Positions 1,473 through 55,981 of a DNA stretch of 64,000 nucleotides are shown piece after piece; position 1 is the first letter of the stretch; every line of letters starts with the position of its first letter. The DNA is from Patescibacteria group bacterium (GTDB lineage: Bacteria; Patescibacteriota; Patescibacteriia; Buchananbacterales; UBA6539). Made by a program: the position numbers and the translations under genes. The notes below the pieces were generated by a model. That model was not told where the DNA came from. It did no database searches and was given only the letters and a program-made list of their open reading frames with translations. Where the stretch lies: the NCBI GenBank assembly GCA_034003985.1, contig JAVEXP010000001.1, forward strand, positions 68,924 through 132,923, read 5' to 3'.

Positions 1473-3293
1473 ATGTTTAATAAACAAATTTTTGGTTTAG
1501 ATATTTCGGATCATTCAGTTGAGCTGGTTTTGTTGGAAAAACCATTGTTTGGTAAGGTTAAGGCCGTCGCATACAGCCGCCTGGTTTTGCGAGGAAATTT
1601 GATCAGTAACGGGGTAATTAAAGATAAGCTGAAATTGTCGGAAAGTTTGACTAAATTATTGGAGTCCGCCAAGCCTCGGTCGGTTAGGACTAGATACTGT
1701 GTTGTTTCATTGCCGGATTCGCAGGTTTTCACCACGGTTTTTAAGTTTCCGGCCGGACTAAGACATAGTGAAATTCAAAAAACTATTCCGTTTAAAGCGG
1801 AAGAAGCAATTCCGTTTAAAGCTAGCGAAGTATATTTTGATTTTAAGACAATCAGCGTCCAGGGTTCTAGCCAGGATGTTTTTTATGTTGCCGCGCCGAT
1901 TAAAATCGTTGATGACTATATTGATCTCTTGAGCTCGGCGGGATTGAAACCAATCGCTTTTGATTTGGAGTCAATCAGTCTGGCGCGGGCAGTTATCGGC
2001 CAAACCGTTCAGAAGGATCAGGCGACTTTGTTGGTGGATATCGGTTCGCGGACTACCAGCGTCAATATTTTTGACCAAAACGGCATCAGGCAAAATTTGG
2101 TCATCAAAACCGGCGGTAACCGTTTTGCCAAAGCCTTGGCAACCAAATTAAAAATGACAGTTAAGGATGCCGAAGTATTAAAAATTAAGAATGGTTTTGA
2201 TCAAAAGAAACAGTCGGCCAAGGCCCTGGCGATTTTACAGAAAGAGGCCGAAAAAATTATTTTAGAAATAAACAGCCTGATTGATTATTATCAAACTCAG
2301 ACTCAGCGTCAGGTTGGATCAATTATTTTGGTCGGCGGTTGCTCGTTGATGCCCGCCATTGATCAATATCTGGCTAACACTTTACAAAGAGAGGTAAATC
2401 TTGGCCAACCATTGATGATGGTTGCCGACCGTCAACAGCTCTTGAAGCTGAAAGATCGGGCGGTGTTTTTTGCCAATGCTATCGGTTTGGCTTTGAGGGG
2501 CTTGGCACGCGATGCGGGTGGTTCGGACATCAATTTATTGCCGATGTTGTCCCCAGCCAAGTTTGCTTTTTTCCCAAAATCGCATGATTTAAAAGTTCGG
2601 CGAAGGTTTAAAATTAGGTTGGTTGTTTTGGTGGTTTTGCTGGCGATACTGATAACTTTGGTGATTCTAAAGCAGCGCGGATTTGATTTATATAGTAAAG
2701 TTATGCCAACCTATGATTATGAAACATACTCGTCGTCTGACATCGAACTTGATATATTGAATGAATTGCGTCAGGAGCTGCTTAATGCTGACACAACGAC
2801 TACGCCGACCGTAATGCCACCGGTGGTCAAAGTTAAAATTAAGCCGACCAGCGTAGGGTTCCTTAATGTTCGAGAGGGCGCGGGTACTGATTTTGCTAAA
2901 GTCGGACAAGCCGATTCCGGGGCGGAATATCAGTTTTTGGAGGAAATTGACGGGTGGTATAAAATCACCCTTGATGACGGATTAGCCGGTTGGGTATCGG
3001 CCACCTTTGCGGAATTGCTGGAAGAGCCGGCCGTTTCAGCAGGTAACGCCTCGTCAACACCAGAAGTTTTGGGTGTTTCTAATGAGGACAGCCTGATAAT
3101 AAAAATTTCTCCAACCGAGCTTGGATATTTAAATGTCCGTCGGCGACCGGATATCGGATCGGACAAGATTGGTCAAGCGGCTGCCGGGGAAGAATTCGAA
3201 GTCTCGGCCCAAGTCGATGGCTGGTATCAAATTACGCTGACTGACGGCAATCAAGGCTGGGTGTCTTCAGTCTACGCTAAAGAAATTAATTAA
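1473..3293 (+). CDS. pilM: Type IV pilus assembly protein PilM (actin-like ATPase) fused to a PilN-like TM segment and two C-terminal SH3b-like repeats
   Basis: A strong SD 'AAGGAGG' precedes the ATG. The N-terminus 'IFGLDISDHSVELVLLEK' is PilM/FtsA-like. A TM stretch 'IRLVVLVVLLAILITLVIL' lies around residue 375. The C-terminus carries two repeats, 'GWYKITLDDGLAGWVSATFAE' and 'GWYQITLTDGNQGWVSSVYAKE', typical of bacterial SH3. Confidence 0.65.
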   Translation: MFNKQIFGLDISDHSVELVLLEKPLFGKVKAVAYSRLVLRGNLISNGVIKDKLKLSESLTKLLESAKPRSVRTRYCVVSLPDSQVFTTVFKFPAGLRHSEIQKTIPFKAEEAIPFKASEVYFDFKTISVQGSSQDVFYVAAPIKIVDDYIDLLSSAGLKPIAFDLESISLARAVIGQTVQKDQATLLVDIGSRTTSVNIFDQNGIRQNLVIKTGGNRFAKALATKLKMTVKDAEVLKIKNGFDQKKQSAKALAILQKEAEKIILEINSLIDYYQTQTQRQVGSIILVGGCSLMPAIDQYLANTLQREVNLGQPLMMVADRQQLLKLKDRAVFFANAIGLALRGLARDAGGSDINLLPMLSPAKFAFFPKSHDLKVRRRFKIRLVVLVVLLAILITLVILKQRGFDLYSKVMPTYDYETYSSSDIELDILNELRQELLNADTTTTPTVMPPVVKVKIKPTSVGFLNVREGAGTDFAKVGQADSGAEYQFLEEIDGWYKITLDDGLAGWVSATFAELLEEPAVSAGNASSTPEVLGVSNEDSLIIKISPTELGYLNVRRRPDIGSDKIGQAAAGEEFEVSAQVDGWYQITLTDGNQGWVSSVYAKEIN

Positions 3294-3322
3294 TAATTTT
3301 TAATAAAAATAACTACAAAACT

Positions 3323-3808
3323 ATGAAAAGATTTCGAGGGTTTACCCTAATCGAACTGTTGATAGTCATTGCGGTAATCGCCATTTTGGCTGCGATTATT
3401 TTTGTGGCGGTTGATCCGGCCCGGCGGCTTGCGGAAGCCCGCAACGCAGCGCGTTGGAGTTCAGTCAATTCAATTCTGAACGCTTATTTGAAGTATACAG
3501 TGGACTACAGCGGTCAAGAGCCAGTAAGCTTGACCCCTGATACCGAGTATATGATCGGCACCGGAGCAAGTGCGACTAATTGTGAATCAGTCGGTGGCGG
3601 TACCGGTACGACTACCAGCGCAGTGATTGACCTTTCACCGTTGGTTGACACTTATTTGTCGTCAATTCCTTATGATGATACTGCCGGCGGCGATGCCAGT
3701 AAGACATTCTATTGGATCAAGAAGACTATGAATGGCCGTATTACCATTGGTGCTTGCGGAGCGGAAATAGCCGGCGGTAATACGCCAACCATTACTGTTA
3801 CCCGTTAA
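3323..3808 (+). CDS. Type IV pilin (prepilin)
   Basis: The N-terminus 'RGFTLIELLIVIAVIAILAAIIFVAV' is a prepilin cleavage motif plus a conserved hydrophobic helix. Confidence 0.75.
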   Translation: MKRFRGFTLIELLIVIAVIAILAAIIFVAVDPARRLAEARNAARWSSVNSILNAYLKYTVDYSGQEPVSLTPDTEYMIGTGASATNCESVGGGTGTTTSAVIDLSPLVDTYLSSIPYDDTAGGDASKTFYWIKKTMNGRITIGACGAEIAGGNTPTITVTR

Positions 3809-3827
3809 GCCTGATTTGACTTTATTA

Positions 3828-3880
3828 AAGAGCTTCTGGACCGGATTAGCCGTCTGACCAGAAGCTCTTTTTTGATTTTT
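3828..3880 (+). terminator. Rho-independent terminator after pilin 1
   Basis: Inverted repeat 'aaagagcttctgg ... ccagaagctcttt' is followed by a T-run. Confidence 0.6.
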
Positions 3881-3927
3881 TAATTTATGGTATAATTCAA
3901 CCAGATAATAAAGGTAATTTTAAACTT

Positions 3928-4446
3928 ATGAACAAAAAACGAGGGTTAACTTTAATTGAGTTGTTGATTGTGATCGCCATTATCGCCATTCTGGCGGCGA
4001 TTATTTTTGTGGCAGTTGATCCGGCCCGGCGGCTGGCGGAAGCCCGCAATGCTGAGCGCTGGAGTTCGGTTAATTCAATTTTGAACGCCTATCTAAAATA
4101 CAGTGTTGATCATGATGGTGATTTGCCGGCCAGTAATGGTGTGGTTGATGATTATCCTGCCACGGTTCAGATTATTGGTGAGGGCGGTACGGCCTGCAGT
4201 TCGGTTGAGTGTGCCGGTGGGGAGAATTCAAGTTTGTCGGTAGTTTCATCTGGTTGCTTCGTGAACGGTTTGGATACTGATTTGGCTGGACCTTATTTGT
4301 CGGCGGTGCCAAAGGACCCGAAAACCGGTACGGATAATGACACCCGGTATTATGTCAACAAGACTACTGACGGCCGAATTGTGGTTGGCGCTTGTGATCC
4401 AGAAACCGTCGGCGGCGAAACTCCCGATATTGAAGTGAGTAGATAA
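3928..4446 (+). CDS. Type IV pilin paralog. The N-terminal roughly 58 aa are nearly identical to the upstream pilin and the C-terminal domain is divergent.
   Basis: 'RGLTLIELLIVIAIIAILAAIIFVAVDPARRLAEARNAERWSSVNSILNAYLKY' compared with the same segment in ORF 3323. The nucleotide identity is about 85% over about 160 nt. Confidence 0.75.
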   Translation: MNKKRGLTLIELLIVIAIIAILAAIIFVAVDPARRLAEARNAERWSSVNSILNAYLKYSVDHDGDLPASNGVVDDYPATVQIIGEGGTACSSVECAGGENSSLSVVSSGCFVNGLDTDLAGPYLSAVPKDPKTGTDNDTRYYVNKTTDGRIVVGACDPETVGGETPDIEVSR

Positions 4447-4463: not shown

Positions 4464-4497
4464 AAAAAATCAACCCTATTTATGGGGTTGATTTTTT
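4464..4497 (+). terminator. Rho-independent terminator after pilin 2
   Basis: Hairpin 'aatcaaccc-tatttat-ggggttgatt' is followed by TTTTT. Confidence 0.6.
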
Positions 4498-4536
4498 ATG
4501 TTACAATGAAAAAAATACTTAATCTATTGAAATTAT

Positions 4537-5049
4537 ATGGCTAAGAAGGCAGTATTTATTATCGCTCAAAACAATTTTCGAGATGAAGAATTGCTGGACA
4601 CCAAGGCGGTTTTAACCGGGCGAAAAATTGAAGCTAAGGTTGCGGCCAAAACCAGAAATAAGGCTTTGGGTAAGCTGGGGACTGAAATTAAACCGGATTT
4701 GGCGATTGCTGAAATTAATCCCAATGACTTTGACGCCATTGTCTTTATTGGCGGCCGTGGAGCAGAACAATATTTTGACGACCAGGAAGTGTTTAAGTTG
4801 GCCGAGAAATTTTTCCGTGGTGGCAAACTAGTCGGGGCAATTTGTATTGCCCCGTCAATTTTGGCCAATGCTGGAGTTTTAATTGGTAAGACCGTTACCG
4901 CTTTTCCGACCGAGGAAGAGAATTTAAGAGATCGTGGAGCTGAATATACCGGGATGCAAGTTGAAGTTGATGGCAAAATCGTCACTGCCAAAGACCCGAC
5001 GGCGGCAAAGGAGTTTGGAGAGAAGTTGGCTTATCTGCTTGAAGGATAA
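4537..5049 (+). CDS. DJ-1/PfpI family protein (class I glutamine amidotransferase-like)
   Basis: Nucleophile elbow 'GAICIAP' and the 'DAIVFIGGRG' pattern are typical of DJ-1/ThiJ/PfpI. Confidence 0.8.
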   Translation: MAKKAVFIIAQNNFRDEELLDTKAVLTGRKIEAKVAAKTRNKALGKLGTEIKPDLAIAEINPNDFDAIVFIGGRGAEQYFDDQEVFKLAEKFFRGGKLVGAICIAPSILANAGVLIGKTVTAFPTEEENLRDRGAEYTGMQVEVDGKIVTAKDPTAAKEFGEKLAYLLEG

Positions 5050-14498: not shown

Positions 14499-15731
14499 AT
14501 GAGAATTTGGAAAATATTGGCCATTACTGTAGCGGCCAGCACGGGACTGGCTTTTTTAGTTTGGCATTATGGTTGGTTGAATAAATTGGATGAAAAATCA
14601 ATTGAGGAACAGACCACTAAACCGCCATTGGAAACAACTTATAAAAAATCTTTTGAAATAATTGAAGGAACGACCTTTGGGATTTTGATGGAAAGAGCCA
14701 GCGTAACCCCGGCAATTAGTCAGGCGATTTTTAGCGCCGCACAGCCGGTCTATGATTTGACAAATATTCGTTTGGGACGAATTATTGATCTGGTTTACGA
14801 TAAAACCACTGACGAATTAAAGCAGTTGGTTTACCCGATTGACAGTGAAGAAAAGTTGTATGTAACTTTACAGTCATCGATGGTGACTGCCACCACTACC
14901 GAGTTGGTTTGGCAGGCCGAGAAAAAATTGATTCCTTATGAAATTAAGATTAAAACCGTTGAGGGTGAAATTCAAACTTCAATGTGGGAGTCGGGCTTGA
15001 ATCAAGGCATAGATGAACGGGCAATTATCGCTTTCGCCGATGTTTTTCAGTGGACGGTTGACTTCGCCTGGCAGGTTAAAGCCGGCGACCGCTACAAATT
15101 TATTTTTGAGGAACGCTATCTGGACGGAGAGTATGTTATGCCGGGAAAAATTTTGGCCGGTAAATTCATCAATGAAGGTAATGACTTATTAGCTTTTTAT
15201 CATGAAGATTCAGTTGATAAAATCGGTTATTTTGATCAAGACGGCAATTCGGTTCAGAAAGTTTTTTTGAAAGCGCCGTTGGCATTTAAATATATCTCCT
15301 CTGGCTTTACCACTGGTAGTCGCTATATTTCGGCGTTCAATATTTCCACTGGCCATCGGGCCATTGATTATGCTGCGGCGGCCGGTACGCCGATTCGGTC
15401 GGTAGGTGATGGCACTATAATTTTTGCCGGCTGGGATGGCGCTTATGGTCGTAAAGTTAGCGTCCGGCATAATTCAACTTACACCACCAATTATGCCCAT
15501 ATGTCAAAAATCGCGGTTCAAGTCGGACAAAAAGTCAGCCAGGGCCAAACCATTGGTTATGTCGGTTCGACCGGACTTTCTACCGGCCCGCATCTGCATT
15601 ACGAAATGGTCAAAAATGGTGTTAAGATTAATCCCTTGCTTGAGGAATTTCCTTCGGCCGAAGGCATTGGTGAGGAAAACAAAGCGGCTTATTTGGCGGC
15701 CGTCAAGGAGTGGCAAGAGCAACTGAATTAA
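14499..15731 (+). CDS. M23 family metallopeptidase (LytM domain) with N-terminal TM anchor
   Basis: 'HRAIDYAAAAGTPIRSVGDG...GRKVSVRHNSTYTTNYAHM...GPHLHYEM' carries the M23 HxxxD and HxH motifs. Confidence 0.85.
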   Translation: MRIWKILAITVAASTGLAFLVWHYGWLNKLDEKSIEEQTTKPPLETTYKKSFEIIEGTTFGILMERASVTPAISQAIFSAAQPVYDLTNIRLGRIIDLVYDKTTDELKQLVYPIDSEEKLYVTLQSSMVTATTTELVWQAEKKLIPYEIKIKTVEGEIQTSMWESGLNQGIDERAIIAFADVFQWTVDFAWQVKAGDRYKFIFEERYLDGEYVMPGKILAGKFINEGNDLLAFYHEDSVDKIGYFDQDGNSVQKVFLKAPLAFKYISSGFTTGSRYISAFNISTGHRAIDYAAAAGTPIRSVGDGTIIFAGWDGAYGRKVSVRHNSTYTTNYAHMSKIAVQVGQKVSQGQTIGYVGSTGLSTGPHLHYEMVKNGVKINPLLEEFPSAEGIGEENKAAYLAAVKEWQEQLN

Positions 15732-16455: not shown

Positions 16456-17889
16456 ATGTCAAACAAATTTTACATTACTACGGCTATTCCCTATGTTAAT
16501 GCTAATCCACACATTGGCTTTGCTTTGGAATTGGTCCAAACCGATGCGGTCGCTCGTTGGCATCGTCAGCAGGGCGATGAGGTTTTCTTTTTGACTGGGG
16601 CGGATGAGAACAGCTTGAAGAATGTTCAGGCGGCTGAAAAAGAAGGAATTTCTACTCGCGAACTGGTTGATAAAAATACCCAGCGTTTCATTGATTTGAC
16701 TAACACCTTAAATATTTCTAATGATGATTTTATTCGAACAGTATCGGATAAACATTTTGCCGGGGCCCAAAAATTATGGTCAACCTGCAAACCCGAAGAC
16801 ATTTATAAAAAAACTTACAAAGGTTTGTACTGCGTTGGTTGTGAACAGTTCTACACTGAAAAAGAATTGATAGACGGCAAGTGCCCGGAACATCAAAAAG
16901 AACCGGAAGTGGTTGAAGAGGAAAATTATTTTTTTAAACTTTCTAATTATCAATCCAAACTGGAAAAGTTGATTGAGTCAGATGAATATAGGGTGGTTCC
17001 GGAATCCCGCAAGAATGAGGTTTTAAGTTTTGTCCGCATGGGTTTGGAAGACTTTTCGATTTCTCGTTCACAGGCGCGCGCTAAAAATTGGGGCGTGCCG
17101 GTGCCCGGTGATGAATCGCAAGTGATGTATGTTTGGTTTGACGCTTTAAGCAATTATATTACCGCTTTGGGTTATGACCAAACTGGCGAAGAATTTAAGA
17201 AATTCTGGCCAGCCGATGTTCATGTGATTGGCAAAGGGATTATCAGATTCCATGCCGTTTATTGGCCGGCGATGTTGATGTCGGCCGGAGTGGAGTTGCC
17301 AAAGAATTTATTTGTTCACGGTTATATCAATATTGATGGCGGTAAGATGTCTAAATCGCTGGGTAATGTGATTGATCCGTTTGTCTTGGTTGAAAAATAC
17401 GGGGTTGAACCGGTACGATATTATTTATTGCGCTATGTTCATCCGGTGCTGGATAGTGATTTTTCAACGAAACAGTTTGAGCAAGCTTATACAGCCGATT
17501 TGGCCAATGGCTTAGGCAATTTGGTCAACCGCGTGGCAGGGTTAATTGAACAAAATGATATCGTGATTAAATTAGATAAGGATCGTGACGCTAATGATGA
17601 ATTCGACCAATTAATGGCAGGATTTTTGTTTGATCAAGCTTTAAAATATATTTGGGACAAGATTGCTCAGGTTGATGGCTTGATTTCCGAAACTAAACCG
17701 TGGGAATTGGCCAAGACCAGCCAGACTGAAAAGCTGACTGAAATTTTGAATCAAGCGGCTAACAGTGTTTATCATATCAGTTGGTTATTGAAGCCATTTC
17801 TACCCGAGACGGCCGAAAAGATTGAACAAATATTTACAGCTGAAAAGATCATTAAGGGTACGCCATTATTTCCCAGATTAGAAAGTTAA
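16456..17889 (+). CDS. metG: Methionine--tRNA ligase (short form)
   Basis: 'PYVNANPHIGF' is a HIGH-type motif. It has the Cys knuckles 'CVGCEQF...CPEH' and the 'KMSKS' motif. The ATG at 16456 is preferred over the upstream start, which overlaps rsmI. Confidence 0.9.
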   Translation: MSNKFYITTAIPYVNANPHIGFALELVQTDAVARWHRQQGDEVFFLTGADENSLKNVQAAEKEGISTRELVDKNTQRFIDLTNTLNISNDDFIRTVSDKHFAGAQKLWSTCKPEDIYKKTYKGLYCVGCEQFYTEKELIDGKCPEHQKEPEVVEEENYFFKLSNYQSKLEKLIESDEYRVVPESRKNEVLSFVRMGLEDFSISRSQARAKNWGVPVPGDESQVMYVWFDALSNYITALGYDQTGEEFKKFWPADVHVIGKGIIRFHAVYWPAMLMSAGVELPKNLFVHGYINIDGGKMSKSLGNVIDPFVLVEKYGVEPVRYYLLRYVHPVLDSDFSTKQFEQAYTADLANGLGNLVNRVAGLIEQNDIVIKLDKDRDANDEFDQLMAGFLFDQALKYIWDKIAQVDGLISETKPWELAKTSQTEKLTEILNQAANSVYHISWLLKPFLPETAEKIEQIFTAEKIIKGTPLFPRLES

Positions 17890-51111: not shown

Positions 51112-52149
51112 CTACAAAATTTCAAATTCATGTTCTTTGTTGTCCTCGACTATCTTAAGGAACTCATCGAATTCATTTCTTTTTTTATTGATAATATTTT
51201 CTAAAACATCGATTTTCAAATCCCTCAATCCTGTCGGCATGTTTGGGTCTAAATCATAACCTAGCAGGAAAATGTCGACGACTTTTATGTCATGATTGTG
51301 TCGTTCTATAATTCCCTTATACCCTAATATTTGACCAATATGATCAGCCTTGATTTTAACAGATGGCCGTTTTAATTCGACTAATACAACATGGTTAGAA
51401 TCTTGTAAGAACATTTTTACAATTAAGTCTGGTCTCTTACCGAGCTCGGGGTCGTCTTCTAAATTTTTGTCGAGATAATCGCTCAAGGTTTTGTCACTTC
51501 TAACTAGATCATAGTTATTATCCAAGAGCCACAAATTTTTTTCTAACAACTTATGTATCTCTCTTTCCTTCGTATCCTTTTGTTTAATAAGGTGCCCAAG
51601 TAGTTTAATAAGTGATATCTTTTTTCTTACCAACTCAGCTATTGTGCTGATCTGTCCTATTCTGAGCTCATTCAAAATTGCTACAAAATTGTCCAATTCG
51701 TCATTTTTAGCGTCTGACAATTGTTTAAGAAGAAAGTCGACATTTTCTGCCTTAATTTCATAAACTCTAACCGCTAATTTATCTAAAGCCTCGAAGCTAG
51801 CCTGAGATAAGCCAGCTACATTTTTATTTGAGAGGATCTTTTGAAGAAAATCAGGGTTACTTGCAAGTATCTCATTTAGGTTGTGAAGTACTTCTTGTTC
51901 CGTTGAATATTTAGTACTTGTTGGCCACTGATGGTATTGGTATGTTTCAGATTCGATGAGTTCCTTAAGATGATTCCAATCATCCAGGTATAAATTAAAT
52001 TTGCCAGTTTTCTCTGGATGACCGGTATGTACTCTTTCTAGGATAATATAGTTGCGATCTTGATGTTCTCCGTCACCAATTACTGCCAGCGTTGTAATGC
52101 CACTTTTCCAGGCTTTTGTGACTTTCTTTAAAAGTTTAAATTTTGTCAT
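51112..52149 (-). CDS. PD-(D/E)xK nuclease-fold protein, DUF4263/Shedu-like candidate
   Basis: 'RPDLIVKMFLQDSNHVVLVELKRP' fits PD...(D/E)xK. The upstream 'EREIHKLLEKNLWLLDNNY' resembles the helix preceding DUF4263 nuclease cores. The gene is flanked at both ends by a 26/28-identical inverted repeat. Confidence 0.5.
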   Translation of the reverse strand: MTKFKLLKKVTKAWKSGITTLAVIGDGEHQDRNYIILERVHTGHPEKTGKFNLYLDDWNHLKELIESETYQYHQWPTSTKYSTEQEVLHNLNEILASNPDFLQKILSNKNVAGLSQASFEALDKLAVRVYEIKAENVDFLLKQLSDAKNDELDNFVAILNELRIGQISTIAELVRKKISLIKLLGHLIKQKDTKEREIHKLLEKNLWLLDNNYDLVRSDKTLSDYLDKNLEDDPELGKRPDLIVKMFLQDSNHVVLVELKRPSVKIKADHIGQILGYKGIIERHNHDIKVVDIFLLGYDLDPNMPTGLRDLKIDVLENIINKKRNEFDEFLKIVEDNKEHEFEIL

Positions 52150-52293
52150 AGAATCGGATTTATGTCACCTAACGTATCGGCGTATCTGAAGTTTGGTTGG
52201 AGTAATCTGCTATAATTGCGCGAAGCGTCAGCAGATTGCGGAAACCGAATTTGGGCGAAGCGAGCGTTAAGAATAAAATATATATTTATGAAA
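52150..52293. repeat. Intercassette repeat (long type, 144 bp) carrying inverted core c5 and an internal 8-bp-stem hairpin
   Basis: 'gaatcggatttatgtcacctaacgtatcgg' is rc-homologous to c4. The hairpin 'aatctgct...agcagatt' is at 52204-52237. The tail 'cgaatttgggcgaagcgagcgttaagaataaaat' matches the 50577-50607 tail. Confidence 0.55.
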
Positions 52294-52644
52294 TTATTTA
52301 TTATCAAGAGAATCTAAAAAATTTTTAATGTTGGCTAAATGTCTTTCTTCTATCTTTTTTATTGAGTATATTTTAATTGAATCATGTTCGTATGAATAAG
52401 CGTCTGGTGGAATTTCTTTTGGCTCATATTTAGTTTTATCCTTTTCTTTAAATTTTATTTCGCCATTTTCTACGGTGTAGATTTCTCGACTAAGCCAACC
52501 TTGTTTTTGTGAACTATCTCTGTATATATAAATTTTTTTAGATTCCACGTCCAAAACACACATATTGACTTTTCGTTTTAGTTGTTGAGAAAGTGTAATC
52601 TTTTTAACTAACTCAACATTTGCAGATGTTGGGAAAGATTTCAT
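52294..52644 (-). CDS. Hypothetical 116-aa protein
   Basis: It has an ATG and is Lys-rich, with no recognisable motif. Confidence 0.4.
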   Translation of the reverse strand: MKSFPTSANVELVKKITLSQQLKRKVNMCVLDVESKKIYIYRDSSQKQGWLSREIYTVENGEIKFKEKDKTKYEPKEIPPDAYSYEHDSIKIYSIKKIEERHLANIKNFLDSLDNK

Positions 52645-52736
52645 AAATATATATTTTATTTAGCCCGCGTAGCCAGATACGCCGTGTTATATGATGTAAT
52701 AAAAAGCTATACTATTTCTAAAATAATTTTGGCAAT
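52645..52736. repeat. Intercassette repeat (short type) carrying core c6 ('gtgttatatgatgtaa')
   Basis: It aligns with 51055-51111 through 'TACATCA..TAACACGG...CGCG..GCTAAATAAAAT'. Confidence 0.5.
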
Positions 52737-53084
52737 TTATTTCAGATCCTTGTTATTTTTAGTGTTCGGATTAGGTCCATATTTATTTTGATCCGGCTCG
52801 CTGTCTGATGCCAAACGTATAATAAGCCACCATGGTGCAAATATCGACCAGCCACTTTTTCCAGTATCGTGTAATCTTCTAATTAAGACTGCTATCCATG
52901 GTGTTAGCGTTGCTAAAAAAAATAAATACCCAAGCATGCTCTCACTATCTCCGATAATGTAACCAATGAATTCAAGAGCAAAAAAAATCAAGTAATTAAA
53001 TAACGTAAAATACCAAAATTCGGCTTTCGTTGATCTCCCAGTAAATTGAGCGTATTTTTTCAAACCTAGAATGTAGTAGTTCAT
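52737..53084 (-). CDS. DUF805 family membrane protein
   Basis: 'RRLHDTGKSGWSI' is the DUF805 signature. It has 3 TM helices. Confidence 0.7.
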   Translation of the reverse strand: MNYYILGLKKYAQFTGRSTKAEFWYFTLFNYLIFFALEFIGYIIGDSESMLGYLFFLATLTPWIAVLIRRLHDTGKSGWSIFAPWWLIIRLASDSEPDQNKYGPNPNTKNNKDLK

Positions 53085-53260: not shown

Positions 53261-54085
53261 ATGTTTTTTGATGCCTTAAAAAAAGAGCTAGAAATTCGCA
53301 ATTTAAGCGAAAAGACAGCCAGGGCTTATCTGTATTATAATGGTGATTTGCTTAAATTCTGCAAAAAAACACCCGAATCAATTAAGGAATTGGATATAAA
53401 AGAGTATGTTAGACATTTGGTTGTGGAAAGGCGGGCTTCGGCTTCGACTGTCAGACTGGCTTTGAATGCTTTAAAATTTTATTACTCAAATATTAAGAAA
53501 CGCCGGTTTGATTATCTTTCTAAGGCGGTGTTGCCTAAAAAACCAAAAAGGTTGCCGGTGGTTTTATCTAAATCCGAAGTGGCAAAATTGTTAAGTTGCG
53601 TTGTCAACAATAAACATCGGTTAATTTTGTCGCTGATGTATTCTTCCGGCTTGAGAGTTAGTGAAGTTGTAACTTTAAGAACTCAGGACTTTGATTTGGA
53701 AAATAAAATTTTGTGGGTTAGACAGGGTAAGGGCAGAAAGGATCGACGAACAATCATTGCTGAAAAGTTAATTGATGATTTAAATCAATTGATCAGCTGT
53801 AAAGAAGTTGGTGATTATATTTTTCCCAGCCAGGATGGGATTGGACATCTTACCGCCCGAACAGCAGAAAAGATTTTTCAATCCGCACTGGTTAAATCAG
53901 GAGTCAAGAAGGAAGCGACATGCCATAGTTTGCGCCATAGTTTTGCCACTCATCTTTTGGAAGATGGGACTGATATTCGTTATATTCAAAGTTTGTTGGG
54001 ACATCAAAGTTTAACAACTACTCAGATCTATACCAAAGTGAGCAGTGGGCATTTAAGTCAGATCAAATCACCATTTGATTGTTAG
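53261..54085 (+). CDS. Tyrosine site-specific recombinase (XerC/XerD-like integrase)
   Basis: It has an N-terminal SAM-like domain. The C-terminal 'HSLRHSFATHLLEDGTDIRYIQSLLGHQSLTTTQIYTKV' contains the catalytic R-H-R-Y residues. Confidence 0.85.
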   Translation: MFFDALKKELEIRNLSEKTARAYLYYNGDLLKFCKKTPESIKELDIKEYVRHLVVERRASASTVRLALNALKFYYSNIKKRRFDYLSKAVLPKKPKRLPVVLSKSEVAKLLSCVVNNKHRLILSLMYSSGLRVSEVVTLRTQDFDLENKILWVRQGKGRKDRRTIIAEKLIDDLNQLISCKEVGDYIFPSQDGIGHLTARTAEKIFQSALVKSGVKKEATCHSLRHSFATHLLEDGTDIRYIQSLLGHQSLTTTQIYTKVSSGHLSQIKSPFDC

Positions 54086-54094
54086 TTTATTCTT

Positions 54095-54152
54095 TTGTCA
54101 TTGCGAGGATCCGCCAATAGGCGGAGACGAAGTAATCTTCTCGCAGCGACAT
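54095..54152. repeat. Diverged palindromic element ('tgtcattgcgag...ctcgcagcgaca')
   Basis: Its terminal inverted repeats flank a 'ccgcc-aatag-gcgg' hairpin. It is related to the MITE-like family below. Confidence 0.45.
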
Positions 54153-54185
54153 GGAGAGTTTTTTTGGATTACAATTTTAAACCCC

Positions 54186-54299
54186 GTGTCATTCTGAGGC
54201 CGCAGGCCGAAGAATCTCTAGACAGAATTGATGTCCTTTACTTTGAGATCCTTCGCTTCGCTCAGGATGACAAGAAGGTGGCTCAGGATGACAATGGGG
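54186..54299. repeat. MITE-like palindromic repeat copy 1 (A+B modules) with an 18-bp tandem 'ggatgacaaRaaggtg' tail
   Basis: 'tgtcattctgaggccgcaggccgaagaatctct...gagatccttcgcttcgctcaggatgaca'. The termini 'tgtcattctgag'/'ctcaggatgaca' are inverted. The internal arms 'cgaagaatctc' and 'gagatccttcg' are complementary. Confidence 0.6.
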
Positions 54300-54323
54300 T
54301 AGGATTATAGTAATACAATATAT

Positions 54324-54620
54324 ATGCCCGGTAGAATATATTATGTTTATTTAATGGTAAACAAGACTAATACGGTAGTTTATACAGGGGTGACAAATAA
54401 CCTGAGACGACGAGTTTTTGAACATAAGAATAAGTTAGTTAAGGGGTTTACCAGTAAGTATAATGTGAATAAATTGGTTTATTTTGAAGAAACTGAAGAT
54501 GTGTCCACGGCAATTTTTCGTGAAAAACAGATTAAGGGTTGGTTAAGAATAAAGAAAATTAAGTTAATTCAAACACGAAATCAGGGGTTTAAGGATTTAA
54601 GTGAATATTGGTATGATTAA
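54324..54620 (+). CDS. Stand-alone GIY-YIG nuclease domain protein (UPF0213-like)
   Basis: 'YYVYLMVNKTNTVVYTGVTNNLRRRVFEH' carries the GIY..YIG and R..E motifs. Confidence 0.75.
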   Translation: MPGRIYYVYLMVNKTNTVVYTGVTNNLRRRVFEHKNKLVKGFTSKYNVNKLVYFEETEDVSTAIFREKQIKGWLRIKKIKLIQTRNQGFKDLSEYWYD

Positions 54621-54631
54621 TTTTTTACTTT

Positions 54632-54737
54632 GTCATTCTGAGGCCGCAGGCCGAAGAATCTCTGGACAGAATTGTTTGAGATCCTTCGCTTCACTCAGGA
54701 TGACAAAAGAAGATTTCCACGATGACAAAAGAGAGTG
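54632..54737. repeat. MITE-like palindromic repeat copy 2
   Basis: It is near-identical to copy 1 in modules A (54632-54674) and B (54678-54737). Confidence 0.6.
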
Positions 54738-54835
54738 TTTGGTATAACAAAAGAGATGACTTTGGTTCGCAACAATCTGTCTGCTGGTAATCGGTAATGA
54801 CAGATTAGCACCGCGGCAATAAAATACTATTGTTA

Positions 54836-54864
54836 TTGACATAAATTTTGGCTAGGTATACAAT
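54836..54864 (+). promoter_or_regulatory. Consensus sigma70-type promoter (TTGACA, 17 nt, TACAAT)
   Basis: TTGACA at 54836-54841, the spacer 'taaattttggctaggta' and TACAAT at 54859-54864. No ORF follows. Confidence 0.55.
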
Positions 54865-54870
54865 GTGAAT

Positions 54871-55076
54871 ACCTAAGGTGATTGGTAAGGCTACCAACTT
54901 TACAGCGAGATCCTTCGCTTCGCTCAGGATGACAAGAGCGGCTAAACTTTTTAGGCCAATAAAATAAATTGAGTGTCCCGATAAAATCGGGAAAGTTGGG
55001 TGGAACCGCCCCGATAATTTACCTGCCTCGGCAGGTCGGAGTCCCAAGCAGAAATTTTCTGGTTGGTTTTTTGTTT
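54871..55076 (+). ncRNA. Candidate small RNA (about 205 nt) of unknown family, with a 3' intrinsic terminator
   Basis: It has no ORF longer than 12 codons. It carries perfect hairpins 'tcccgat-aaa-atcggga' and 'acctgcc-tc-ggcaggt'. The terminal hairpin is 'ccaagcagaa-attt-ttctggttgg' followed by TTTTTTGTTT. It embeds one B-module repeat at 54907-54936. Confidence 0.4.
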
Positions 55077-55093
55077 GGATATCTTTCGCTTCG

Positions 55094-55150
55094 AGATCCT
55101 TCGCTTCGCTCAGACAAAAGAAGATTTCCACGATGACAAGAAGGTGGCCC
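55094..55150. repeat. MITE-like B-module half copy
   Basis: 'gagatccttcgcttcgctcagacaaaagaagatttccacgatgacaagaaggtggcccaggat'. Confidence 0.5.
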
Positions 55151-55253
55151 AGGATTATAAAGAGAGTGTTTAGGGTAATGGGTGGGGTAATTGCGACAGG
55201 ATTTAGAATGGCATTAGGGTGTTTATTTTGATTATCAACCCAATATCATGTTG

Positions 55254-55396
55254 TGTCATTCTGAGGCCGTAGGCCGAAGAATCTCTGGACAGAATTGTTT
55301 GAGATCCTTCGCTTCGCTCAGGATGACAAAAGAAGATTTCCACGATGACAAGAAGGTGTTCGGGATGACAAGAAGGTGTTCGGGATGACAGGAAGT
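55254..55396. repeat. MITE-like palindromic repeat copy 3 with 2.5 tandem copies of a 20-bp unit 'gatgacaagaaggtgttcgg'
   Basis: It has the A module (55254-55296) and the B module (55301-55340). The tandem units at 55345-55396 run up to the GNAT gene. Confidence 0.6.
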
Positions 55397-55414: not shown

Positions 55415-55981
55415 ATGTCTAAAAAAATTATTTTAAAAGGAAAAAAAGTAATTTTACGCCCATTGTCTTTGACTGACGCGCCAAGGTTTTGCCAGTGGCT
55501 AAAAGACCGCGAAGTTACCAAGTTTTTGAGCATTCATGATCAGCCGCCGCCGAGCTTGCAGGAAGAACGCGATTGGATCAGGCGAACCAAAACTCATAAA
55601 CAAAATGTGGTGTTGGCAATTGATACCATTGACGGCCAGCATATCGGGGCAATCAGTCTGCGTTTTTCGCTGGGTGAAGACAAGGTGGCAAATTACGGCA
55701 TCAGTATCGGTGATCAGCGTTATTGGGGACAGGGTTATGGAACGGAAGCGGGCGAATTGATGATTGAATATGGCTTTAAGAAATTAAGATTACACCGGAT
55801 CCATTTGGAGTGTATTGCCTATAATATTCGGGGAATAAAATCTTATCAAAAATTGGGATTCAAAATCGAAGGCAGATTGCGAGATCAGATTTGGCGCGAC
55901 GGGTATTGGCACGATCAAATTCATATGGGAATTTTGGAGCAAGAATACTTCAATAAATCAAAATCTAAGAAAAAGGAGTGA
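55415..55981 (+). CDS. GNAT family N-acetyltransferase (RimJ/RimL-like)
   Basis: 'ISIGDQRYWGQGYGTEAGELMIEYGFKKL' is the acetyl-CoA binding motif A. The ATG at 55415 is preferred, because the upstream part of the ORF is repeat sequence. Confidence 0.8.
   Translation: MSKKIILKGKKVILRPLSLTDAPRFCQWLKDREVTKFLSIHDQPPPSLQEERDWIRRTKTHKQNVVLAIDTIDGQHIGAISLRFSLGEDKVANYGISIGDQRYWGQGYGTEAGELMIEYGFKKLRLHRIHLECIAYNIRGIKSYQKLGFKIEGRLRDQIWRDGYWHDQIHMGILEQEYFNKSKSKKKE

Follow-up and report, generated by a model that had tools for sequence, protein, structure and literature searches.

REP/REPIN-like hairpin repeats and a probable partner gene for a small GIY-YIG nuclease in a Patescibacteria genome

Repetitive extragenic palindromic (REP) sequences, with their hairpin-forming doublets (REPINs) and the genes for REP-associated tyrosine transposases (RAYTs), occur as singlets, inverted doublets and tandem arrays, they cluster by their cognate gene, and some of the singlets are decayed (PMC3116915). 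This is the closest known system to the one considered here, a field of hairpin repeats at positions 54096-55395 of a 64-kb stretch of DNA (the window) from a Patescibacteria group bacterium (contig JAVEXP010000001.1). The field contains a gene for a stand-alone GIY-YIG nuclease. Stand-alone prokaryotic GIY-YIG domains have been assigned to the Slx1 family and are described as minimal single domains, with no mention of repeats (Dunin-Horkawicz et al., PMC1564403). In the full-text literature that we searched, in which subscription journals are thinly covered, no activity, substrate or mobility was reported for these prokaryotic proteins and no partnership between a GIY-YIG gene and hairpin repeats was described. 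We consider it probable that the field is made up of REP/REPIN-like structured DNA repeats and a partnered small nuclease gene, and that the nuclease would drive the spread or the maintenance of the repeats.

Hairpin modules and the GIY-YIG gene

The basic unit of the repeats is a hairpin module of about 28 nt. An earlier note on this DNA, made from the sequence alone, had taken an 86-bp palindromic element as the unit; that element turns out to be a doublet, with two different modules in inverted orientation. Modules of the family are 24-45 nt long and read TG-TC-AT-abc-GA-d, then an apical stem-loop (usually C-GNA-G), then d'-GA-c'b'a'-AT-CTC. The conserved foot is thus TGTC-AT...AT-CTC, and the stem consists of 5 covarying bp and a conserved tandem G.A/A.G. 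Doublets across the family are 56-172 bp long, bounded by inverted modules and non-coding. In the window doublets, the left arm has a GGCC-GCA-GGCC apical extension and the right arm a CGAAG tip. The hairpin-forming character claimed in the earlier note is confirmed, as all three window doublets fold as DNA hairpins better than their shuffles (z from -2.3 to -3.7).

The pairing was examined in 142 distinct 28-mers that were chosen with only the anchors TCAT, GA, GA and ATC fixed and with no pairing requirement. In this set, 96% of the cells are paired and double-sided changes occur in 135 cells, compared with 31 +/- 5 in shuffles (none of the 500 shuffles reached 135). Five of the seven pairs are compensatory, and one of them occurs in all four Watson-Crick types. 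Likewise, with a pattern in which the Y and R positions were unconstrained, all 162 matches have a concordant Y-R pair (100 T-A, 62 C-G and none discordant). In 343 hairpins the tandem G.A/A.G is retained, and Watson-Crick pairs only rarely take its place, which would mark one of the strands as functional. Apical parts range from 3 to 45 nt; this variation speaks against a fixed duplex binding site and favors recognition of a folded strand or a cruciform. The short apical form is mostly C-GNA-G (GCGAAGC, GCGCAGC or GCGTAGC), and d(GCGAAGC) is the classic example of an extraordinarily stable DNA mini-hairpin.

The gene within the field encodes a protein of 98 aa that matches Pfam PF01541 (E = 2e-16, 60.4 bits against a cut-off of 22.6). 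Its AlphaFold2 model has a mean predicted local distance difference test score (pLDDT) of 92.7. Foldseek placed the UPF0213 protein BH0048 (1zg2) first, followed by the Slx1 entries 4xlg, 7cq2, 7cq4 and 6seh, and then by the UvrC N-terminal domain; the Slx1 matches include Slx1-Slx4 on 5'-flap DNA. A profile search of solved sequences also returned 1zg2 (E = 1.2e-5), as well as 1ywl. Homologues from very distant taxa are 55-77% identical to the window protein, and residues Y6, Y7, Y20, T21, G22, R30, E33, H34, E67 and N86 are invariant in 32 homologues; judged from these alignments, the family is under strong constraint. It is also a large family, with 11,813 clusters at 50% identity for E <= 1e-3 and 4,287 for E <= 1e-10 among 1.8 billion representatives. 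Many predicted homologues have N- or C-terminal extensions that are translated modules, for example CHPERSEGS, RDPSPSLRSG and EILRFAQDDK. Searches of the nuclease with PADLOC and PHROGs gave nothing meaningful.

The association of modules and gene was examined at 80 loci of GIY-YIG homologues from species-representative genomes, picked by protein similarity alone. They span at least 15 phyla, including Pseudomonadota, Desulfobacterota, Bacillota, Chloroflexota, Cyanobacteriota, Spirochaetota, Ignavibacteria/Chlorobi, Planctomycetota, Acidobacteriota, Elusimicrobiota, Cloacimonadota, Nitrospirota, Binatia, Thermodesulfobacteriota and Patescibacteria. A strict module detector, which found nothing in the shuffled window, placed a module within 200 nt of the gene at 57 of the 80 loci and on both sides of it at 41. 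With a covariance model, about 70 of the 80 loci have a module within 200 nt, by a hand count of the matches listed. Modules occur at about 4.8 per kb up to 200 nt from the gene and at 0.09 per kb more than 800 nt away, which is a difference of about 50-fold. Their orientation is biased as well, with + modules upstream and - modules downstream of the gene. The earlier note had the GIY-YIG open reading frame (ORF) as a flanked neighbour of the repeats. It is indeed flanked, and the sequence comparisons identify it as the presumptive cognate gene of the repeat family instead of an incidental neighbour.

The smallest units are 362-426 bp long and consist of a TGTCAT-module, 0-60 nt, the ORF, 4-46 nt and a module-ATGACA. 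Their ends are those of the doublets, and a GIY-YIG nuclease is all that they encode, with no known transposase family involved. Two loci (L282 and L273) have perfect inverted terminal repeats. At L273 (404-941), perfect inverted repeats of about 80 nt, that is, a module plus about 52 nt, surround the gene as if it were at the tip of a long hairpin. The layout of the window, [+][-] gene [+][-], recurs at L272, L280 and L268 and in the RefSeq plasmid p1 of the cultured Planktothrix agardhii No.66.

The repeats themselves are widespread. A degenerate arm pattern matches at least 120 IMG/VR viral contigs, and the exact left arm with a GGCCGYAGGCC insert matches at least 120 JGI metagenome contigs, and the source contig is not among the latter matches listed. 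Together, modules or doublets are present in at least 240 unrelated viral and metagenome contigs with a GC content of 40-68%. Among the metagenome matches listed, the exact left arm is nearly always the left half of a doublet, and the spacer and the right-arm loop differ. The gene lies near modules in only one of 120 viral and two of 120 metagenome loci (again among the matches listed), from which it follows that gene-less doublets greatly outnumber gene-carrying units. A search of viral contigs for loci of the gene gave nothing with the single GIY-YIG protein and only six loci with an alignment. A BLAST search with doublet B found no match at E <= 1e-3 in cultured phages and PLSDB plasmids, the query being too short and variable to be informative.

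Ends, tails and the spread of the repeats

The ends of the elements are sharp. Conservation stops exactly at TG...CA and the flanking composition is random. No direct repeat of 4 nt or more, as expected of a target-site duplication, was found at any of 166 distinct doublets, repeats of 2-3 nt are near chance in number, and no target motif was found around the same doublets.

Tandem tails, which the earlier note had made part of the pattern, are a trait of the whole family. The terminal 8-mer recurs within 60 nt outward at 69 of 695 distinct outer ends and never in shuffles, mostly at a distance of 19-27 nt. The tail unit consists of an 11-13-nt copy of the outer arm and an 8-10-nt spacer, repeated in tandem. 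The copied segment is typically 11-13 nt long, which puts the break points at the loop. The inner arm is partially duplicated as well, at 55077-55092 in the window and at L027, L047 and L049. The CCACCT-type tail unit of window 54273-54293 recurs at an unrelated Syntrophomonadaceae locus (L262), and the tail spacers are alike in unrelated genomes (L262, L285, L278, L032 and window 54273-54293), where they read TGTCATCCTGAGCCACCT.. or TGTCATTCTGAGCCCTTCGC... Such likeness would not be expected from duplicated random flanks, and the tail might be either a short element of its own or a part of the mobile unit.

Copy numbers change at the level of strains. For example, loci L332-L341 are one locus from many metagenome samples, with an identical 92-aa GIY-YIG protein (P0120) and the same pilin-like gene cluster, and the flanking intergenic regions vary from 69 to 337 nt. 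The differences are in the number of tail units (1 vs 2), of head-to-tail modules (period 29) and of doublets. These assemblies have runs of N inside the arrays. A second example of copy-number variants is L032/L103 compared with L089. Most of the contigs that encode GIY-YIG protein P0098 (L344-L352) end within 100-300 nt of the gene, which suggests that the flanking repeats interrupt the assemblies and are present there in multiple copies per genome.

In a Planktothrix agardhii plasmid (L343, NZ_LR882964.1), three tailed doublets at 15455-15531 and 17093-17253 are in frame inside the coding sequence of a 1560-aa MmeI-type restriction-modification protein. They are translated as VILSETKDLSGVV..RDSSQAQNDNNN and as AQNDKNN/AQNDRRGY repeats, with no stop codon. 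Therefore, the repeats can persist inside coding genes.

As noted above, we favor a partnership of the repeats and the nuclease. In such a partnership, the modules would act as single-stranded or cruciform DNA hairpins, and the structure-specific GIY-YIG nuclease would recognize and nick them, most likely in the loop and close to the TG/CA end. Repair of the breaks by copying or recombination would then allow gene-carrying units as well as gene-less doublets to spread and persist with no target-site duplication, and the partial-arm duplications in the tails would be footprints of this repair. In the window, a GIY-YIG unit presumably inserted into the variable spacer that separates a housekeeping XerA-like recombinase gene from a T-box-controlled GNAT-thrS pair, after which the repeats may have multiplied locally by duplication or recombination, with one of them landing inside the T-box leader.

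The main rival, although we think it rather unlikely, is that the doublets are independent of the gene, which would encode a free-standing homing endonuclease. This enzyme would cut the extruded hairpin of an empty doublet, and the gene would be copied into the spacer with the modules serving as short homology arms; a gene-filled doublet, equally doubtfully, would no longer extrude and would thus be spared. The commonest layout, in which the gene occupies the spacer of a doublet ([+] gene [-], with gaps of 3-60 nt), is what this predicts, and the long inverted repeats at L273 resemble an insertion at the tip of a long hairpin. In addition, the flanking modules often differ in subtype (for example at L276 and L283), doublets outnumber genes by about 50:1 among the matches listed, and GIY-YIG is a classic homing-endonuclease fold (PMC1564403). 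However, homing leaves the spread of the doublets themselves unexplained, and it does not account for a gene between two complete doublets, as in the window, in Planktothrix and at several other loci. Arms of 24-32 nt are also at the lower limit for recombination, and the protein lacks the DNA-binding domain of the known GIY-YIG homing enzymes.

A second alternative, which we judge to be improbable, is that the modules act chiefly as RNA, either as mRNA-stabilizing or terminator-like hairpins or as a cis-regulatory or protein-binding motif, and that the link to the GIY-YIG gene is secondary. Covariation and tandem G.A pairs are typical of structured RNA too, some modules are in intergenic transcribed places (the interior of a T-box leader or directly upstream of start codons), and REP elements are known to affect mRNA stability. 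However, no Rfam family matches the modules. They occur in both orientations relative to the neighboring genes, and in any transcript one module of a doublet is always in the C.T-mismatch orientation. GNA triloops are a motif of DNA stability rather than of RNA, and the in-frame copies inside a coding sequence do not fit an RNA role either. The sharp TG...CA ends, the tails and the strain-level changes in copy number are DNA-level behavior, and the enrichment around a nuclease gene would still need explaining.

The repeat field and its neighbors in the window

The coordinates of the field are collected in Table 1. Repeat finders, patterns and a covariance model identified eight hairpin modules of 24-32 nt between 54096 and 55395, which form three inverted doublets and two solo modules; the field also has one variant copy (54096) and tandem tails of about 20 nt. 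The 28-nt and 32-nt arm patterns had no match in 100 shuffles, which excludes chance. When the covariance model was run over all 64 kb with filters off, it found the eight modules at E <= 0.011, all within 54187-55328, and no significant module in the other 62.7 kb of the window, where the arm patterns were not found either. At gathering thresholds, Rfam 15 had no match in the whole window, and a scan of the region by E-value gave only a weak T-box match and chance matches such as mir-143. A scan for tRNA and tmRNA found none. A hammerhead or k-turn reading of CUGAG...CGAAG was rejected by inspection, as A9 and the 3-nt bulge are missing.

Table 1. Positions of the repeats, of the GIY-YIG gene and of neighboring features in the window
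Feature	Position	Strand	Remarks
Tyrosine recombinase gene	53261-54085		XerA-type; the field begins 11 nt past its stop codon
Variant copy	54096-54152	+	Hairpin module TGTCATTGCGAG..CGAAGTAATC, then inverted 12-nt terminal fragment CTCGCAGCGACA; subfamily pattern TCATTGCGAG...CGAAGTAATC, differing from the other window modules
Doublet A, whole	54187-54272		86 nt, the sole full copy of that length
Doublet A, left module	54187-54218	+	G.A strand on top; GGCC-GCA-GGCC apical extension; 32.8 bits, E = 2.8e-6
Doublet A, right module	54245-54272	-	GAGATCCTTCGCTTCGCTCAGGATGACA; 49 bits, E = 1.6e-10
Tail of doublet A	54273-54293	+	One 21-nt unit, 9-nt spacer plus outer-arm copy (AGAAGGTGG+CTCAGGATGACA); repeat family D6
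GIY-YIG nuclease gene	54324-54620	+	Stand-alone, Slx1/UPF0213-like; 98 aa; between doublets A and B
Doublet B	54631-54705	+	75 nt; left module 54631-54662 (+), right module 54678-54705 (-); fold z = -3.5
Tail of doublet B	54706-54760	+	About 2.5 degenerate 22-nt units ending GATGACA/ATAACA/GATGAC; repeat families D4, D8
Predicted T-box leader, promoter	54836-54864		TTGACA-17-TACAAT
Predicted T-box leader, ACC-bearing hairpin	54883-54898		Matching codon
Solo module	54907-54934	-	In linker of the predicted T-box leader; 49 bits; identical to right arms of A and C
Predicted T-box leader, T-box sequence	54985-55003		GTTGGGTGGAACCGCCCCG
Predicted T-box leader, terminator	55044-55072		Hairpin and T-run
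Partial inner-arm duplicate	55077-55092	+	GGATATCTTTCGCTTC; 15 nt upstream of, and in register with, module 55093; repeat family D2, spacing 15
Truncated solo module	55093-55116	-	Right arm minus 4 nt (GATG); 19 bits, E = 0.011
Tail after truncated module	55114-55159	+	Runs on into sequence also present in the tails of A and B; repeat families D4, D6, D8
Doublet C	55254-55328	+	75 nt; left module 55254-55285 (+), right module 55301-55328 (-); repeat family D3; fold z = -3.7
Tail of doublet C	55329-55395	+	3.3 units of 20 nt GATGACAAGAAGGTGTTCGG at 55330-55395 (Tandem Repeats Finder); enters the GTG-started extension of the GNAT ORF

The earlier note had listed three full copies, two half copies and a diverged copy. 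All three full copies are present within 1 nt of the positions given there; only the first (fold z = -2.3) is as long as stated, and the other two are shorter by the 11 nt that the spacer of doublet A (54219-44) has in excess. The half copies are the two solo right arms, and the diverged copy, which folds as DNA at -13.8 kcal/mol (z = -3.7), was missed by covariance model R1 and hence belongs to a different subfamily. As the note also proposed, the minus-strand ORFs at 54633-54842 and 54805-55131, with their VILSEAKDL/LSEAKDL stretches, are translated modules; they are antisense to the T-box leader and are considered spurious for this reason.

The copies in the window are alike beyond the ends of the element. 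For example, doublets B and C have 98% identity across 98 nt that take in the first part of the tail, positions 55113-55146 match 55325-55358 of the doublet C tail at 100%, and the copy at 55093 has its tail and post-tail sequence in common with copies A, B and C. This likeness implies that local duplication or recombination built part of the field. Tandem duplication of a single attachment site at this locus was the outcome that the earlier note named as able to overturn its reading. The local copies have indeed been duplicated or recombined, but the family is not confined to this locus.

The neighbors of the field can be compared with those in the closest relative found (L327, GCA_964535715.1), whose ThrRS is 82% identical and which has kept the order recombinase, T-box leader, GNAT, thrS; its recombinase, at 3054-3929, is syntenic with the one in the window. 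This relative is without the GIY-YIG gene, the doublets and the leader-internal module. It has only one TCATTGTGAG-type module, TCATTGTGAG..CGAAGCAATCTC at 4491-4527, which is similar to the variant copy of the window. The region just 3' of the recombinase gene is variable, and L327 has a 138-aa ORF there. A further ORF of L327 separates its T-box leader from the GNAT gene, in a place that is taken up by repeats in the window.

The region at 54870-55075, which had been noted as a small RNA candidate, is instead, by its predicted features, a divergent T-box leader for GNAT-thrS. The ACC hairpin, the T-box sequence, the terminator and the downstream GNAT-thrS genes are all conserved in L327 (leader at 4600-4800). 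The scores with RF00230 are 28.3 bits in the window and 24.4 bits in L327, and the gathering score of 93 is not reached. The two leaders align throughout except at the solo module 54907-54934, which is an insertion relative to the Rfam T-box model. The leader (54836-55075) may represent a type of T-box with a short Stem I in Patescibacteria. In the longest GNAT ORF, which begins with GTG at 55376, the first 13 residues (MFGMTGSDYLSIN, MFGMTG...) are the translated tail of doublet C; the start shared with L327 (MKNKVILKG) is the ATG at 55415.

Upstream of the recombinase gene, a 345-aa ORF on the minus strand (51112-52149) has a weak match to the Shedu SduA C-terminal domain/DUF4263 (Pfam E = 2e-5, below the cut-off; PADLOC E = 6e-4), and a second minus-strand ORF (52737-53084) encodes a DUF805 protein. 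The flank around 51112-53084 may be defense- or island-like.

The adjacent tyrosine recombinase suggests a third alternative, namely that the repeats are its attachment sites (attC- or dif-like), multiplied by recent tandem duplication at one locus. The field does start right behind the recombinase gene, as the earlier note had pointed out, every copy in the window is in this field with sequence in common outside the element, attC sites are imperfect palindromes read as folded single strands too, and the recombinase scores 232.5 bits with the integron-integrase model TIGR02249. This reading is nevertheless essentially refuted, because that score is below the cut-off of 265, with two matching stretches that skip the IntI-specific insert, and the XerA-type model NF040815 is passed (229 against a cut-off of 220), none of the 80 GIY-YIG loci has a tyrosine recombinase within 4 kb, L327 has retained the recombinase but neither the GIY-YIG gene nor the doublets (which makes the recombinase a bystander), the RYYYAAC/GTTRRRY cores are not present in elements that end TGTCAT...ATGACA, and the same modules are in hundreds of unrelated contigs.

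Strength of the case and comparison with known systems

Several observations weigh against the partnership of repeats and nuclease that we favor. At 10-23 of the 80 GIY-YIG loci, no module was found with the detectors used. The window and L327 are about 18% divergent in protein, and at this distance an insertion is indistinguishable from a deletion. When the flanks of 452 repeat blocks were joined and searched for in all of the fetched loci, only tail or loop copy-number variants were found and no clean empty site. The similarity of the window copies outside the element ends points to local duplication or recombination over transposition, and the 64 kb of the source genome has just one module cluster. 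The covariation fits RNA structure as well as DNA structure. Furthermore, we know of no strand-transfer activity of a 95-aa nuclease domain alone, which leaves the label transposase unsupported, and the repeats could be moved by something else, with the gene as a passenger or as their homing endonuclease.

With these points in mind, we suggest tentatively, and with some doubt, that the repeats and the 95-aa GIY-YIG gene might be an unrecognized class of prokaryotic mobile elements. At about 360-430 bp, it would be the smallest known autonomous unit, its sole protein would be an Slx1-like structure-specific nuclease, its ends would be tandem-G.A/GNA-tipped DNA hairpins, and its REPIN-like non-autonomous doublets would have spread with no target duplication in at least 15 phyla, including Patescibacteria. 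The element would also be able to reside in frame within proteins. If so, a GIY-YIG-driven mechanism would join the short list of chemistries for DNA transposition and homing.

A functional partnership would matter in several other ways. It would provide a substrate and a biological role for the large and uncharacterized prokaryotic Slx1/UPF0213 GIY-YIG family, and it would mean a new class of enzyme behind REP/MITE-type repeats (MITE, miniature inverted-repeat transposable element). It would also explain a common annotation artefact, the ORFs and terminal extensions that read VILSEAKDL, CHPERSEGS, LRFAQDDK or SLRMT in many phyla. The system would be minimal and experimentally tractable, requiring only a 28-nt hairpin and a 98-aa protein, and it is present in the cultured Planktothrix agardhii. 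Finally, it would bear on the genome plasticity of the streamlined Patescibacteria, as the repeats here are inside a T-box leader that would control thrS.

Among known systems, the IS200/IS605 elements and the integron attC sites have a folded single strand as substrate, imperfect hairpins with non-Watson-Crick features and no duplication on insertion, and by analogy the folded strand may be what is recognized here. However, the ends of IS200/IS605 are on the same strand and not inverted, and the enzymes of the two systems (Y1 HUH transposases and IntI tyrosine recombinases) are not associated with these repeats. The window protein has the GIY-YIG fold and the conserved Y, Y, R, E and N of Slx1/UPF0213 (YhbQ-like) proteins and of GIY-YIG homing endonucleases (I-TevI and Seg), and it differs from the latter in that they carry extra DNA-binding domains. 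In structure it comes closest to UPF0213 BH0048 and to Slx1, which is a structure-specific nuclease that acts on branched and flap DNA. Rickettsia palindromic elements, which are genus-restricted, 100-150 bp long and inserted in frame into protein-coding genes without destroying them, resemble the in-frame repeats in the Planktothrix MmeI-type gene; to our knowledge, they have no cognate nuclease gene.

The repeats were called MITE-like in the earlier note, and they do share much with bacterial MITEs (Correia/NEMIS, RUP, ERIC and Nezha). Both are short and non-coding, with terminal inverted repeats that fold as hairpins, both are dispersed (here across metagenomes) and can create or extend ORFs, and both have a longer coding relative with the same ends. 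However, the inverted repeats here are internally structured, covarying hairpins, which ordinary transposon ends are not, the coding 'parent' has no known transposase, and the absence of target-site duplications fails one defining MITE feature and places the family closer to REP/REPIN.

The likeness to REP/REPIN and RAYT systems is the closest. Both consist of imperfect palindromes of 20-40 nt that occur as singlets, as inverted doublets forming long hairpins, in tandem arrays and in clusters. In both, the clusters adjoin a small cognate nuclease gene flanked by repeats, target-site duplications are absent, gene-less doublets far outnumber the gene, and singlets resemble decayed remnants. The differences are that the nuclease here is a 95-aa Slx1-like GIY-YIG protein and there an HUH/Y1 transposase (RAYT), that the conserved foot is TGTCAT here and GTAG there, and that the modules described here have a conserved tandem G.A and GNA tip and can be in frame within coding genes. 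In addition, REP sequences are species-specific, whereas one repeat consensus and its gene (55-70% identity) are common to at least 15 phyla here.

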